From a virus (lineage: Duplodnaviria; Heunggongvirae; Uroviricota; Caudoviricetes), in the IMG/VR virus record IMGVR_UViG_2737471862_000003, positions 1 through 44,719 of that record: a stretch of DNA of 44,719 bases; one strand, written 5' to 3'. Position 1 is the stretch's first letter. The number at the start of each line of letters is the position of its first letter. The notes under the pieces are model-generated. The model was given only the letters and a program-made list of their open reading frames with translations. It did not search any database and had not been told where the DNA came from. Of the stretch, positions 1 to 40,042 are shown piece by piece. Made by a program: the position numbers and the translations under genes.

Positions 1-582
1 TTACTCTGCAGGTGAAGTCGGCCACTCAATATCAGGTGCAGTTGATGTATCAACACGGTTCAGCAATACCCGATACTTCTTCCAGGCTTCCAGCAACGAG
101 GTTTCTTCCTCCGTTGCAATTTCCAGATCTGCAGCATCCTGAAGCGGCGCAATATGCTCACTGGCTACCTGCATCAGGCTTTTTTTTGTTTCTTCCGCCT
201 CCCGGATCCGGAACAGTTTTTCTGCTTCCGTATCCTTCACCCAGGCTGTGCCGTTCCACTTCTGATATTCCCCTCCCGGCGATAACCAGGTAAAATTTTC
301 CGGTAACGGACCGAGTTCAGAAATAAATAATGCATCCCCTGATGCCACGTCATAGACGGTTTTACCCCGATGGTCTTCAACGAGATGCCACGATGCCTCA
401 TCACTGTTGAAAACAGCCACGAAGCCAGCCGGAATATCTGGCGGTGCAATATCGGTACTGTTTGCTGGCAGACCTGTATGAGGTGGAATGTATGCATCAC
501 CTTCACCAATAAATTCATTGGTTCCGGCCAGCAGATTATAAATTTTTATGGTCCGTGGTAGTTCACTCATTCTGAATGCCAT
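1..582 (-). CDS. tfa: tail fibre assembly protein Tfa
   Basis: 193 aa ORF whose translation ([53 protein letters not shown]...) matches lambda Tfa as I remember it. Its start overlaps the stop of the upstream tail fibre gene, and its stop codon is at the window edge. Confidence 0.9.
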
Positions 583-28256: not shown

Positions 28257-28412
28257 AGGATGATCCTTTTTCTATGTGAATCATCACCACTGCTGACGCC
28301 AATCAGTATGGTGGTGAACTGTGCAGGGTTGGCGTAACCGGGAAAAAGGAACCGGCGCGGATCGCTCCGCCCCCACACAGCCCACCATTGAGATGTGACA
28401 GTGCAAACGACA

Positions 28413-28434
28413 ATAAAAAAGACGCTGGCGCGTC
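28413..28434 (-). terminator. tR'-like intrinsic terminator downstream of the late promoter
   Basis: GACGC-TGGC-GCGTC hairpin plus a T-run on the minus strand, about 60-70 nt downstream of the candidate late promoter. Coordinates approximate. Confidence 0.55.
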
Positions 28435-28495
28435 TGTTGTCGCCTTTTTCATCCGGGACGCCAATCCCGACGCCAGATTTTGCTGGCGCGTGAGG

Positions 28496-28525
28496 AATAT
28501 AGCCCCGGACAATGTGTCTGGTCAA
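28496..28525 (-). promoter_or_regulatory. candidate late promoter pR' (TTGACC-N18-TATATT) overlapping the Q stop
   Basis: The sigma70-like -35/-10 pair is read directly from the minus strand immediately 3' of Q. The position matches lambdoid pR'/qut. Confidence 0.45.
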
Positions 28526-31102: not shown

Positions 31103-31258
31103 TTACTCCTCAGATTCGTAAGCTGTGAAGACAGCGACCTCCGTCTGGCCGGTTCGGATTCGTACCTCGCAGAGGTCTTTCCTCGTTACCAGTGCCGTCA
31201 CTATGACGGTTAAACAGATGACGATCAGGGCGATTAACATCGCCTTTTGCTGCTTCAT
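31103..31258 (-). CDS. hok: Hok/Gef-family type I toxin
   Basis: MKQQKAMLIALIVICLTVIVTALVTRKDLCEVRIRTGQTEVAVFTAYESEE is essentially the HokD/RelF sequence. AAGGAG ribosome-binding site. Confidence 0.9.
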   Translation of the reverse strand: MKQQKAMLIALIVICLTVIVTALVTRKDLCEVRIRTGQTEVAVFTAYESEE

Positions 31259-31315
31259 AGCCTGCTTCTCCTTGCCTTTCGGCACGTAAGAGGCTAACCT
31301 AGATTTGCCGTTCAT
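31103..31315 (-). CDS. mok: Mok (modulator of killing) overlapping reading frame
   Basis: An in-frame N-terminal extension of 19 codons begins at an upstream ATG, as in hok/mok/sok loci. Confidence 0.6.
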   Translation of the reverse strand: MNGKSRLASYVPKGKEKQAMKQQKAMLIALIVICLTVIVTALVTRKDLCEVRIRTGQTEVAVFTAYESEE

Positions 31316-31360
31316 AGATTGAGCCTCAGATTAATGTTAAGCGTCTTGCCGGACGCGTAA
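31285..31360 (+). ncRNA. sok: predicted Sok-like antisense RNA (position inferred, not located)
   Basis: In hok/sok systems the antitoxin RNA is encoded antisense to the mok translation-initiation region. Here the position is inferred from that architecture only; no promoter or terminator was located. Confidence 0.25.
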
Positions 31361-31595
31361 TGTTAACTGGGGCTTTTCTCTGTCTGCCTTACAGTGGCAT
31401 GCCCGAGGCAGACAGCCTCAAGCACCCGCAACAATCTTACCGACACCGATAAGAAAACGCTATTTTTATTGCCAGAACCTTCTGCCCAGGCTAATGTATC
31501 CGCGTCAGAACGGCGCAATGCGCTCGCCTGAGATACGTTTACTTGTCATTGGTGGCAACAGATAACGGCAATTGTTGTTTCTGTTTGTTTCCTTC

Positions 31596-31632
31596 AAAAA
31601 CCCCGGACCGTCAATCCGGGGTTTTTGTTTGT
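31596..31632. terminator. bidirectional intrinsic terminator
   Basis: AAAAA-CCCCGGA-N7-TCCGGGG-TTTTTGTTTG. Coordinates approximate. Confidence 0.5.
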
Positions 31633-35087: not shown

Positions 35088-36308
35088 TTATCCCCTGAAC
35101 CCTGGTGGAATTTCGGTGTCCGGTTCAGAAATGTGATTCACACAACGCTGGTTGTTCGTGCCGCTTACCGGGAGCAACCAGGGGTTTTCAAAATTCCGGT
35201 CCGGTCCAAAAAACGTCGTCGCTCGCTGAACAAATTCCGTTCCCGCTTTCCCGGTCGCCGCCATGTATCTCGCGTAACGCCTCACACCATCCAGCATGGT
35301 CTCTGGTGACACCCCCTCGCGCAATCTGGCCTTCCAGGCACTGAATGCGGATTTCTTCGGGTTTGCCCCGGCACGCAACGGGTATTCCCGCCAGACCTGT
35401 TCGAACACATCCGGATAATCCACTCGTCCCACAGGCCGCCCGGTGTTTTCCGGGACTACCCGATCGGCTTCCCGCTGAATGGCGGAATCGGCTTCAGGCT
35501 GCTGCAGTTGGTGTGATTGCTCCGACCCTGCGGTCATCGCCTGCTGCACAGCGCCCGAATCGGCTTTCAGCGCATACGCCGAATCGGCTTCCGGTGTCGT
35601 GCCTGCTGGCTGACCAGAATTTACGGTCTGAACATCCCCTGCCTGGTTCATGGTGTTTTTTTCGCCATGAACCATAGTGTTTTTGTCCTGTTCCTGTTCT
35701 TTCTCCTGCTCCTGTTCTTGGCTTCGAAGCCCCTTAAAAGCCCCTTCGAAGCCCCTTACCGAATTTCGGCTATTATTCCGCCTCACATCCAGATGGAAAT
35801 CCGTTTTATATCTGTCGTAAAACGCTGACAGAAAAGCGTTTTCAGGTAATGATGCATACTCATTCCTGACACCTGCACAACGGTTATCGCCGGGCTTCAA
35901 CGTTTCCCCAACCTGCCAGGCTGCCATTTCATGGACCCAGACCATCTCTGCATCATGGTCATAGCTACAAAAACCAGCTTCAACAGCCCTTTTAAGCCCC
36001 TTTGAAGCCCCTTCCAGACCAAGCCCGGTTTCATGAGCAAGGTATAAAACTGGCAGGTAATACAAACCCAGCATATTTGCGTGAGGGGATGTCATCAGGT
36101 AAAAAGCAACAACTTGCGCTTCTGCACCCGCCTTTCTAAGTTCTCTCCCCGTTTCTCCCAGCCAGAATCGCGGAGAAACTTTTGCGTAATCACGCATGGC
36201 TACCTCATCTGGTGCCGAACCTTCCTCCGGATATAATCTGTGGTTCCCAATCGACAGAACCAGAGGAGGTTCGACATGTATTTTTTGAAAAGCCTTTATC
36301 AGGCTCAT
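35088..36308 (-). CDS. hypothetical 406 aa protein, candidate replication initiator (contains phased DNA direct repeats)
   Basis: Large ORF downstream of the cro/cII-like genes with an internal Glu/Gln-rich linker (SQEQEQEKEQEQDK). The DNA inside it carries iteron-like repeats. Confidence 0.5.
   Translation of the reverse strand: MSLIKAFQKIHVEPPLVLSIGNHRLYPEEGSAPDEVAMRDYAKVSPRFWLGETGRELRKAGAEAQVVAFYLMTSPHANMLGLYYLPVLYLAHETGLGLEGASKGLKRAVEAGFCSYDHDAEMVWVHEMAAWQVGETLKPGDNRCAGVRNEYASLPENAFLSAFYDRYKTDFHLDVRRNNSRNSVRGFEGAFKGLRSQEQEQEKEQEQDKNTMVHGEKNTMNQAGDVQTVNSGQPAGTTPEADSAYALKADSGAVQQAMTAGSEQSHQLQQPEADSAIQREADRVVPENTGRPVGRVDYPDVFEQVWREYPLRAGANPKKSAFSAWKARLREGVSPETMLDGVRRYARYMAATGKAGTEFVQRATTFFGPDRNFENPWLLPVSGTNNQRCVNHISEPDTEIPPGFRG
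35727..36013. repeat. five copies of AAGCCCCTT in two clusters with 11 bp phasing (iteron-like)
   Basis: Plus-strand copies at about 35727, 35738, 35749, 35994 and 36005. The copies fall in different reading frames, so the repeat is at DNA level rather than protein level. Confidence 0.6.
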
Positions 36309-38283: not shown

Positions 38284-38436
38284 ATGGATACTATCGATCT
38301 TGGCAACAACGAATCTCTGGTATACAGCGTGTTTCCCAACCAGGACGGCACATTCACCGCGATGACGTATACCAAAAGCAAAACGTTTAAAACCGAAACT
38401 GGCGCACGTCGCTGGTTAGCCAGAAATACTGACTGA
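38284..38436 (+). CDS. hypothetical 50 aa protein, first gene of the early-left operon
   Basis: ATG with a GAGG ribosome-binding site (MDTIDLGNNESLVYSVFPNQDGTFTAMTYTKSKTFKTETGARRWLARNTD). Not in the ORF track because it is under 60 aa. Its stop overlaps the next ORF. Confidence 0.55.
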   Translation: MDTIDLGNNESLVYSVFPNQDGTFTAMTYTKSKTFKTETGARRWLARNTD

Positions 38437-38444
38437 TGAGGTTA

Positions 38445-39080
38445 ATGATGGAATTTAAAGATTTACCGCTATCAATCCAGGAGATTGCAGCACACACACT
38501 ACGTCAACGTCTGAACGAAGCTATGGCTGAATCTGCAACGAAAGAAACCATTGATAACATGGCTCGTAATGTACACGATGCGTTTACCGGATTGTATTTC
38601 TGTGCGTCTGTAAATAAACACGACCCAGAGAGTGTGGCAAAGAAAATTGCAGAAACGACAGTGCAAAACATCAATACGAAACCAACCGAAGACGAAATTG
38701 ACCAGCCTGCCAGTGAACAAAAAAAAGAAAAATCGCCATATGCGGGAAACATGTTTGTTTATGACAAACTTATCCGAATTCGTGGCGAAATTCCGACTGA
38801 ATACCTGGCAAGAATTCACCAGACATTACTTAAAAATCTGGAAACGGAAGTATTTGATGGCAACACCAACGGTTCCTTCGTGGTATCAGCTCTCACAAAG
38901 GAGTGGGATAAAGATAATCGCTGGAATGTTGCTACATGGTTATTCAGCAACAAAGCTTCTGCCCTGGAAGCTGCGGCGTGTATTTGCGACCTGCTAAGGA
39001 CAGACCGCAAATACAACCTGGATGTGTATAGCTATATTTATGCTGAACACTATCCGCTATGGATTAACTTTAACTGGTAA
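38445..39080 (+). CDS. hypothetical 211 aa protein (AT-rich cargo in the early-left operon)
   Basis: ORF with a GAGG ribosome-binding site. GC content is lower than in the flanking phage genes. No family recognised. Confidence 0.6.
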   Translation: MMEFKDLPLSIQEIAAHTLRQRLNEAMAESATKETIDNMARNVHDAFTGLYFCASVNKHDPESVAKKIAETTVQNINTKPTEDEIDQPASEQKKEKSPYAGNMFVYDKLIRIRGEIPTEYLARIHQTLLKNLETEVFDGNTNGSFVVSALTKEWDKDNRWNVATWLFSNKASALEAAACICDLLRTDRKYNLDVYSYIYAEHYPLWINFNW

Positions 39081-39290
39081 TTACAAAGCTGTACCTGCAG
39101 GGCCACGACGACCAGCACCACGATTGTAATCAATGATGCCATTATAAAGCGCATTATTTAATTTATCGTCGAATGCCGATTCTGTGAGCCCTGGCTCTGA
39201 ATGAGTTTTTAATAACCCTGATTGCCTGAGTTGATTAACCAGGCATTCAATCTGTTTTTCAATAAGCGGATGTATTGGCTTGTTTGGCAT
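39081..39290 (-). CDS. hypothetical 69 aa protein, convergent with the 211 aa gene
   Basis: Internal ATG with a GGAGGA ribosome-binding site (MPNKPIHPLIEKQIECLVNQLRQSGLL...). No gap between the two convergent stop codons. Confidence 0.5.
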   Translation of the reverse strand: MPNKPIHPLIEKQIECLVNQLRQSGLLKTHSEPGLTESAFDDKLNNALYNGIIDYNRGAGRRGPAGTAL

Positions 39291-39684
39291 TTTATCCTCC
39301 ATTGAGGTTACTGGTTGAGAATGGAGACCACACGTGACAGCGTGTTGTCGTGCGCCGGACACGGATAAGAATCCGGCACTGATAGTTTATGAAAGGATAT
39401 ATCCCTGAAAAGTCAGGGCATAACACGGAAGCGCACGGCGGAGGTGTCTTTTCCTTAGAAGGCTTGTCGTTAGATTTCTTCGACCGTGCGCTTCCGGTTG
39501 TGGCACTCCGCGAAATGGCGCGGCGGTAAGTATGGCGGGGTTATTCCTTACCCCCATTGGTGGCACCGGGTTGTCAGGTTGACCATACGCCTGAGTGACA
39601 ACCCCGCTACAACACTCCATGTTGATTTGTACCTTTGGCGGCATCAGTTTCATTGCTGGCTGATGTCCGCCCTTTTTAAAGTGA

Positions 39685-39834
39685 ATTTTGTGATGCGGTG
39701 AATGCGGCTAAGCGCACGCGGAACAGTTAAAAGCGTATTAAAGCATCTGTGTTATGGGTGGATTCTCTGTATCCGGCGTTAATTGTTAACTGGTTAACGT
39801 CACCTGGAGGCACCAGGCACCGCATCACAAAATT
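39685..39834. repeat. 16 bp perfect inverted repeat (ATTTTGTGATGCGGTG / CACCGCATCACAAAAT) flanking about 118 bp
   Basis: Read directly from the sequence. Lies in a 560 bp region with no convincing ORF that also holds a 13 bp inverted repeat (CGGAAGCGCACGG / CCGTGCGCTTCCG, about 39426-39496). Confidence 0.7.
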
Positions 39835-39853
39835 CATTGTTGAGGACGCGATA

Positions 39854-40042
39854 ATGGAAACATTATTACCAAACGTTAATACGTCTGAAGGTTGTTTTGA
39901 AATTGGTGTCAGTATCAGTAACCCTGCATTTACTGAAGATGCCATTAATAAGAGAAAACACGAACGGGAGTTATTAAATCAAATATGCATTGTTTCAATG
40001 CTGGCCCGTTTACGTCTGATGCAAAAAGGATACTGGCAATGA
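39854..40042 (+). CDS. hypothetical 62 aa protein
   Basis: ATG with a GAGGA ribosome-binding site. Translationally coupled (ATGA) to the next gene. Confidence 0.5.
   Translation: METLLPNVNTSEGCFEIGVSISNPAFTEDAINKRKHERELLNQICIVSMLARLRLMQKGYWQ

Follow-up and report, generated by a model that had tools for sequence, protein, structure and literature searches.

Probable RNase III processing stems around a DicF-type small RNA, and a conserved folded RNA element between them, upstream of dicB in a Qin-like prophage

Long intramolecular helices act as RNase III sites in phage early transcripts, including the T7 early mRNA and the lambda N-leader and sib, where cleavage separates RNAs and resets the downstream 5' end. 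In the dicBF operon of the Qin prophage of Escherichia coli K-12 (Faubladier et al. 1990; Balasubramanian et al. 2016; Ragunathan et al. 2023) a 190-nucleotide (nt) form of the small RNA DicF owes its 5' end to RNase III and a 53-nt form owes its 5' end to RNase E (PMC10448788), with a terminator making the usual DicF 3' end. A 72-nt DicF arises when RNase III processes the full-length or read-through mRNA (PMC5069750, PMC9438474, citing Faubladier 1990). Wild type K-12 produced a terminated ydfABC-dicF transcript, and accumulation of a longer read-through transcript required inactivation of RNase E (PMC10448788). The region analyzed here, positions 39291–39853 of a 44,719-nt sequence from a virus of the Caudoviricetes (IMG/VR record IMGVR_UViG_2737471862_000003, the whole 44.7-kb stretch being referred to below as the window), had been described in an earlier note, made from the letters of the sequence, as a non-coding stretch carrying two long perfect inverted repeats, here termed IR1 and IR2. 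Comparison with K-12 indicates that the prophage is a Qin-like lambdoid one, that the region is very probably the long untranslated part of its dicBF-type early-left operon and that the inverted repeats are most likely RNase III substrates. The finding as originally noted therefore amounts to a known locus with already known processing sites, although a DicF-type small RNA within the region and the identity of the next gene as dicB had both been missed. Homology, gene order, folds, the terminator and conservation were established for the window itself, whilst cleavages were placed by position from K-12. The features that carry this comparison are as follows.

39419–39502, + strand: IR1 hairpin, with base CAUAAC/GUUGUG, perfect 13-base-pair (bp) arms and a hypervariable tip.
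39498–39613, + strand: element C, a conserved domain of 116 nt that folds between IR1 and the DicF-type RNA.
About 39622–39677, + strand: DicF-type small RNA, a divergent allele, with a short single-stranded 5' part, a terminator hairpin (39637–39671) and a U-run (39673–39677).
39680–39838, + strand: IR2 structure, a 21-bp closing helix around a branched STnc100-like core, directly before the dicB ribosome-binding site.
39843–39847 (Shine-Dalgarno sequence GAGGA), ATG at 39854, stop ending at 40042, + strand: dicB, encoding a 62-amino-acid (aa) cell-division inhibitor.

Homology to both K-12 Qin and phage Tritos begins at ~39349, and from this point onward the region is ~86% identical to the ydfC-dicF-dicB untranslated region of the Qin prophage. 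K-12-lineage strains gave a match over 90% of the query at ~86% identity, a prophage of E. coli VG35A2 was 100% identical to the query, a match was present in 4724 of 5426 complete E. coli genomes, and in phage Tritos DicF is annotated at the aligned position. The annotated gene order in K-12 (dicA, ydfABC, dicF, dicB, ydfD) is found in the window in the same order and with the same spacing, namely a divergently transcribed Cro-like regulator gene, a repressor gene, a DUF1391 gene, further genes, the studied region, dicB and a ydfD-like gene. The annotated order in VG35A2 is a Cro-like gene, a helix-turn-helix repressor, DUF1391, the studied region, dicB, DUF1482, exonuclease, xis and int. The studied region sits between a dicA/dicC-type immunity switch and dicB-ydfD-exo-xis-int, the identity of dicB being given by its annotation in the identical VG35A2 prophage and by its alignment with K-12 dicB. 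IR1, element C, the position of the terminator, IR2 and the dicB start are all common to the window and K-12 Qin; both inverted repeats are perfect in the window, however, whereas those of K-12 contain an A-C mismatch and G-U pairs. Variation was assessed using 88 dicB loci gathered from genomes and viral contigs, among which 65 different upstream sequences, each 482 nt or longer, were compared.

The IR1 arms were located by a repeat finder at 39426–39438 and 39484–39496 (13 nt, 100% complementary, with 45 nt between them), in agreement with the earlier description. IR2, reported previously as a 16 bp repeat separated by 118 bp, is indeed present but has 19-nt perfect arms at 39682–39700 and 39818–39836 with 117 nt between them. 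Five inverted repeats having a 12-nt exact seed within 200 nt were found in the whole window, IR1 and IR2 among them, and a simple calculation gave a chance expectation in the window of ~0.1 cases for a 13-mer and ~2e-5 for a 19-mer. Another repeat in the window, at 31595–31627 (13 bp perfect, 7-nt loop, CAAAAACCCCGGA/TCCGGGGTTTTTG), resembles a bidirectional intrinsic terminator.

Folded as RNA, IR1 is a hairpin of about 25–29 bp including the 13 perfect bp, in keeping with the double-stranded RNA of about two helical turns expected of an RNase III stem, and has a fold energy of -57.7 kcal/mol (z = -5.6). Across 26 variants 21 pairs were kept, two of them with compensatory changes (examples being GCGUACGG/CCGUACGC and CACAG/CUGUG) and several with G-U intermediates, and the tip was swapped among at least three unrelated cassettes in homologues. 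Most homologues have an A-C mismatch where the window allele has G-C, and the perfect 13 bp are therefore a trait of the window allele.

IR2 as RNA likewise agrees with this expectation, giving a 21-bp uninterrupted helix (39680–39700 with 39818–39838; fold z = -5.1), and the consensus structure produced by RNAalifold from 20 homologues contained 45 pairs. The closing helix is near-invariant, with 12 changed cells keeping a G-U pair on the + strand and three breaking a pair. As a + strand G-U pair corresponds to an A-C mismatch on the other strand or in DNA, selection appears to act on the + strand RNA rather than on DNA symmetry. In the distant copies that precede tciA in phages P1 and D6, 8 bp of core helix are retained, one of these pairs being compensated. 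Conservation of the repeats in homologous prophages, on which the proposal of a structured RNA had in part been made to depend, was observed for both. The T7 and lambda sites resemble these repeats as long intramolecular helices but have no sequence relationship to them, and IR2 is not a simple hairpin, as its helix encloses a branched core of 117 nt.

This core resembles a described family of prophage small RNAs. The Rfam model STnc100 (RF02076) matched 39684–39831 (+ strand; model positions 21–154 of 206) with 38.2 bits, under its gathering score of 47, and IR2 keeps the STnc100 closing helix and the terminal CCUGG/CCAGG hairpin, the same helices being given by RNAalifold in the 20 homologues. 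The STnc100/PasD small RNAs are, like IR2, prophage-borne, and share with it the closing helix and a CCUGG-AGGCA-CCAGG hairpin; canonical STnc100, however, is encoded among the late genes, close to Q, stx and an esterase gene, whereas IR2 lies in the early-left operon, and the closing helix is 8 bp in STnc100 but 21 bp in IR2. The distant copies in P1 (L092 3842–3961) and D6 (L094 2001–2121), immediately upstream of tciA (TerB-like), are likewise sub-threshold STnc100-like structures. Given the placement of IR2 before dicB and of these structures before tciA, the STnc100-like element may serve accessory genes in general as a leader or insulator.

The positions of the published K-12 RNA ends were transferred to the window using K-12 coordinates, alignment and the published RNA lengths. 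Counting 190 nt back from the K-12 DicF 3' end leads to a position inside CCGTGCGCTTCCG in the IR1 3' arm, ~39491 in the window, and counting 72 nt forward from the 5' end leads to the 10th base of the 19-nt IR2 5' arm, ~39691. In the accessible part of one K-12 study the sequence printed in Fig. S1 extends from the IR1 tip across the 3' arm, consistent with a cut there (PMC10448788). Both repeats are most likely the known RNase III processing stems, and by this positional transfer RNase III cuts are predicted at ~39491 ± a few nt, after ~39691 and at ~39829, the last creating a new dicB mRNA 5' end. The match to the K-12 cuts, together with variation that is mostly G-U-tolerant on the + strand, supports the suggestion in the earlier note of a structured RNA or processing site within the early-left transcript.

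Between IR1 and IR2 lies what is best called a DicF-type small RNA. It aligns base for base with the position of dicF in K-12, and its predicted 5' end is the point that corresponds to the RNase E site of K-12 in this alignment. A terminator scan identified a hairpin at 39640–39667 followed by a T-run (CGCCCTTTTT, with GGCGG...CCGCC), and folding showed the hairpin extending over 39637–39671. The intrinsic terminator is accordingly this separate hairpin with its U-run, which had gone unremarked, and not either of the inverted repeats, for which a terminator role had been suggested. GGCGG...CCGCC and the U-run are common to K-12 DicF and the window allele, whereas the 5' part and the loop differ. 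The DicF model (RF00039) matched 39624–39672 (+ strand) over its full length (model positions 1–52; E = 3.3e-6). DicF and STnc100 were found at a permissive Rfam threshold and DicF was not listed in the gathering-threshold scan, so that the proposed Rfam search returned two relevant + strand matches, both sub-gathering. The DicF position is the least conserved module of the region: in 70 of the 88 dicB loci there was no BLAST match to the window allele, whilst the flanks matched at 80–99%, and the terminator hairpins at this position fell into at least 10 classes among homologues. The RefSeq record of the identical VG35A2 prophage has no RNA gene annotated at the position of the small RNA. A small RNA in a comparable place is KilS in K-12 Rac (L218 7406–7503), which follows the DUF1391 gene and precedes the FtsZ inhibitor gene kilR in a locus without element C. 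Placement of a small RNA before a division inhibitor may thus be an arrangement that has recurred with unrelated components.

Several observations weigh against reading the region as a processed dicBF-type leader. The DicF match of 38.7 bits is below the gathering score of 48, and a crude duplex measure showed no ftsZ complementarity of the window allele above that of shuffled controls. Full-length duplexes with 100 nt of ftsZ (-60 to +40) were uninformative and a 47-nt target (-35 to +12) was used instead; by this measure, which ignores accessibility and Hfq, the best duplex of the window allele with the ftsZ ribosome-binding region had an energy of -22.3 kcal/mol with 78% of shuffles as good, against -30.9 with 5.6% of shuffles as good for K-12 DicF. 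The targets of the window allele may therefore differ from those of K-12 DicF. The Qin-like set shows no both-sided change in the pairs of the IR2 closing helix, so that covariation support for IR2 comes from wobble changes and from the distant P1 and D6 copies. An opposite-strand gene of 69 aa lies inside the operon, unlike in K-12, and could alter transcription through the region. The cleavage positions, transferred from K-12 by alignment and published lengths, carry an uncertainty of a few nt.

The most conserved stretch of the region is element C, for which the following pairings are proposed, all on the + strand.

P0: 39498–39505 with 39606–39613, GUUGUGGC pairing with GCUACAAC.
P1 helix: 39508–39512 with 39519–39523, CCGCG pairing with CGCGG.
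P2: 39537–39540 with ~39551–39554, a short hairpin with compensated stem types.
P3: 39568–39576 with 39596–39604, GGGUUGUCA pairing with UGACAACCC.
Pseudoknot: 39530–39535 with 39583–39588, GUAUGG pairing with CCAUAC in the P3 loop.

The set used to examine these pairings comprised 98 unique variants obtained from a pattern scan of viral contigs and from the loci already collected, with pair tallies based on anchors. P2 occurred as the stem types CGGGG/CCCCG, CUGGG/CCCAG, CGAGG/CCUCG and CAGGUGG/CCACCUG, with 53 distinct variants of the P2 segment, and in phage P1 the pseudoknot is GCAUGG with CCAUGC, U-G intermediates also existing. In an alignment of 31 sequences 94.4% of cells were paired, compared with 33–57% in slid controls, and eight pairs were changed on both sides, compared with 3.3 ± 1.4 in shuffles (1 of 500 reached eight), counts to be read with the caveat that the structure was derived from the same sequences. 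A thermodynamic fold of the processed species 39490–39678 recovered P0–P3 and the terminator, whereas in the fold of the unprocessed transcript the IR1 base occupies the P0 5' strand instead. The P0 5' strand overlaps the 3' strand of the IR1 base, so the two helices exclude each other.

These features can be combined in a model for expression of the locus. A repressor-controlled early promoter would drive + strand transcription through the region, and the nascent RNA would fold co-transcriptionally into IR1, element C and the DicF-type RNA with its terminator, with IR2 forming on read-through transcripts. RNase III would cut the IR1 stem to give the 5' end of a ~190-nt species containing element C and DicF, and this cut, by freeing the P0 5' strand, would allow element C to close, a coupling that we infer from the overlap of the two helices. 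RNase E would then cut downstream of element C to give the short small RNA, and the terminator would end most transcripts and provide the usual 3' end. On transcripts that read through, RNase III would cut the IR2 closing helix, giving a 3'-extended small RNA and a dicB mRNA with a leader of ~25 nt. The same cut would remove a 21-bp helix ending 5 nt before the Shine-Dalgarno sequence, and may, we suggest, influence dicB translation. The inverted repeats would in this way act as double-stranded RNA substrates that excise the small RNA from a polycistronic transcript and uncouple dicB from it.

Element C occurs well beyond the Qin-like loci. A covariance model built for it gave 138.7 bits at element C, present as a single copy in the 44.7-kb window with filters off, and copies were also found at L001 3749–3868, L092 (P1) 2487–2604 and L093 2498–2617 and in the early-left region of Stx2c phages. 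In phage P1 the copy lies ~20–25 nt downstream of the C1-controlled ban promoter, as estimated using the -10 signal of the annotation, with a terminator directly after it, and part of it is labelled "dicF-like region" in the P1 GenBank record. A hairpin and U-run followed element C within 4–37 nt in 81 of 82 distinct downstream contexts, the hairpins falling into more than 10 classes. Among 159 distinct contexts IR2 was present downstream in 132, IR1 sequence upstream in 114 and neither in 25; element C with its terminator is therefore the constant core. No Rfam family matched element C, matches to other families at permissive thresholds being noise with E above 1, and the covariance model found no element C in K-12 Rac or the HK022 immunity region (loci L095, L096). 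In the accessible literature the core sequences of element C were in no paper text searched, and the 2023 study of the dicBF operon makes no mention of stem-loops, terminators or antitermination. We tentatively propose that element C is an undescribed structured phage RNA class extending from Qin-like and Stx2c prophages to the P1 ban leader and forming the constant core of interchangeable DicF-type small RNAs, set nearly always a short distance before an intrinsic terminator with freely variable hairpin and seed, a possibility that we rate at somewhat below even. Control of the adjacent terminator and guidance of small-RNA maturation are the leading ideas for its role: as such a class, element C might set how far transcription terminates or reads through into the early-left genes, or might direct how the small RNA matures, and IR1 would be a competing structure removed by RNase III.

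The put RNA of phage HK022 invites comparison, being likewise a folded RNA ahead of terminators in an early operon, and the P1 copy of element C is promoter-proximal as is putL. However, put is ~70 nt with two stem-loops, whereas the 116 nt of element C form four helices and a pseudoknot, and put has one copy downstream of each early promoter, whereas element C has a single copy per prophage. BLAST of the HK022 immunity region against 39340–39860 gave chance-level matches only, with no put similarity. A search for a second, putR-like copy in the rightward operon yielded as best other match 10.7 bits at 35354–35467 (- strand), which was regarded as noise. Given the absence of BLAST similarity and of a covariance-model match, and the single copy, put was rejected as a model for element C.

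These results bear on a different view of the locus, in which element C is the main functional unit, either as a cis-acting put-like antiterminator or as a riboswitch- or attenuator-like element, and sets transcription into dicB, exo, xis and int with IR1 gating its folding. This view, which would add to the processing account and not replace it, is rather unlikely. It draws on the better conservation of element C than of the small RNA after it, on helices and a pseudoknot supported by covariation, on the terminator hairpin and U-run within 4–37 nt in 81 of 82 contexts, on the location in P1 between the C1-controlled ban promoter and a terminator and on the mutual exclusion of P0 and the IR1 base. 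Element C nevertheless has no sequence or model similarity to the HK022 putL/putR region, occurs once in the window and not at all in the rightward early operon, and has no known ligand or protein partner, and the terminated transcript of wild type K-12 argues against strong antitermination by it. An origin of RNase III sensitivity in a sense-antisense duplex with the transcript of the 69-aa gene, rather than in hairpins, is very improbable. That - strand gene abuts the region and weak - strand promoter-like sites are present at 39789–39762 and 39889–39862, but such sites are no commoner than in shuffled sequence, and K-12 lacks the 69-aa gene and yields the same RNase III products.

Two further explanations, each still more improbable, treat the repeats as DNA. 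In one, IR2 is a mobile insertion between dicF and dicB, resembling a miniature inverted-repeat transposable element with 19-bp terminal inverted repeats. Long perfect terminal repeats around a 117-nt core and mosaic junctions at the IR2 edges (L036 and L080 diverge after the 3' arm, L022 before the 5' arm) would fit such an origin, but the window sequence has no flanking direct repeat indicative of a target-site duplication, and IR2 was present in every examined dicB locus with enough upstream sequence, with no clean empty site or precise deletion; the discrete insertion that the earlier note had proposed to look for was therefore not found among the dicB loci. The core is moreover homologous to STnc100-type RNAs with a closing helix of only 8 bp, the variation in IR2 is G-U-tolerant on one strand, and the mapped K-12 RNase III cut lies inside the arm (PMC5069750, PMC9438474). 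In the other, the repeats are paired regulator or recombinase sites or cruciforms, a suggestion that the perfect DNA symmetry of the window allele would accommodate. It found no support, since the A-C mismatch and G-U pairs of IR1 and the G-U pairs of IR2 in most homologues break DNA symmetry and keep RNA pairing; arms 45 and 117 nt apart around hypervariable interiors are also atypical of operators, and the operators of the switch would be expected ~1.6 kb away between the divergent repressor genes. We prefer the reading in which the two RNA stems are processed by RNase III.

The earlier note had also described a motif occurring three times. The 9-mer AAGCGCACG does have three copies in the whole window, all of them inside the region, compared with 0.45 expected, and 2 of 100 shuffles reached three. 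Two of these copies are, however, the two IR1 arms, and the sole independent copy is the following.

39710–39718, + strand: third AAGCGCACG copy, located within a small inner hairpin of the IR2 core, in its loop and 3' strand.

Homologues have A, G, C or U preceding GCGCACG at this site, and K-12 has GAGCGCACG at the third-copy site and AAGCGCAUG in the IR1 5' arm; only the window allele therefore has the exact 9-mer three times. A true three-copy motif was rejected, as the IR1 arms account for two copies and homologues do not conserve the exact third match. The third copy is probably a chance overlap of two GC-rich structural elements and without a separate role.

The absence of a convincing open reading frame (ORF) in the region was confirmed. 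Mechanical ORFs overlap it (71 aa on the + strand at 39486–39701 and 88 aa on the - strand at 39387–39653), but a protein-coding reading was rejected because 1- and 2-nt indels relative to K-12 and Tritos, for example CCTTACCCCC versus CCTT--CCCC, break every frame. ARAGORN found no tRNA gene in 39300–39900. The dicB frame continues without a stop on the 5' side of its ATG, so that a mechanical ORF of 97 aa spans 39749–40042 (+ strand) with a GTG start inside the IR2 core; DicB has reportedly been found to be translated from an in-phase internal start, which agrees with this open frame. The left part of the locus contains two further features.

39081–39290, - strand: 69-aa gene of unknown function with a full-length phrog_4274 match, a hypothetical protein in VG35A2, forming the left border of the region in the position of ydfC.
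39349–39418, + strand: conserved 5' part of the untranslated region, with hairpins at ~39354–39377 and 39403–39418 in the fold.

The 39349–39418 module was found in most dicB loci. Compared with K-12, the window has a 214-aa gene and the opposite-strand 69-aa gene where K-12 has ydfB and ydfC. The 214-aa ORF (38436–39080, + strand) is intact in the window with a full-length phrog_2151 match, and the same sequence in VG35A2 (L002 5157–5790) is recorded in RefSeq as a frameshifted pseudogene. Near-identical copies of the dicF-dicB E. coli prophage sequence were found in records given to unrelated hosts, Aeromonas phage AP1 (MT713136) and a metagenome-assembled genome of Veillonella parvula (locus L007), both probably representing assembly or binning contamination. 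Other RNAs scoring above Rfam gathering thresholds in the window were C4 antisense RNA, its a1/b1 target and isrK at 28307–28502 (- strand), which constitute a P1/P7-type immunity RNA module elsewhere in the prophage, and sok antitoxin RNA (hok/sok type, 110 bits) at 31253–31427 (- strand) and IS009 RNA (224 bits) at 41–239 (- strand).

The dicF locus and its RNase III stems have been known in K-12 since 1990 and were revisited in 2023, so that little changes for the repeats as first noted. Standard annotation, however, misses this DicF allele as a sub-threshold match, and DicF-type small RNAs are in consequence underestimated in counts from E. coli genomes. The body of the small RNA appears to be a swappable cassette between conserved processing elements, and the same module may target different host genes across prophages. 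If element C controls termination or maturation, this would explain how early-left operons without N balance production of the small RNA against expression of dicB, exo, xis and int, and would link these operons to the phage P1 ban leader.

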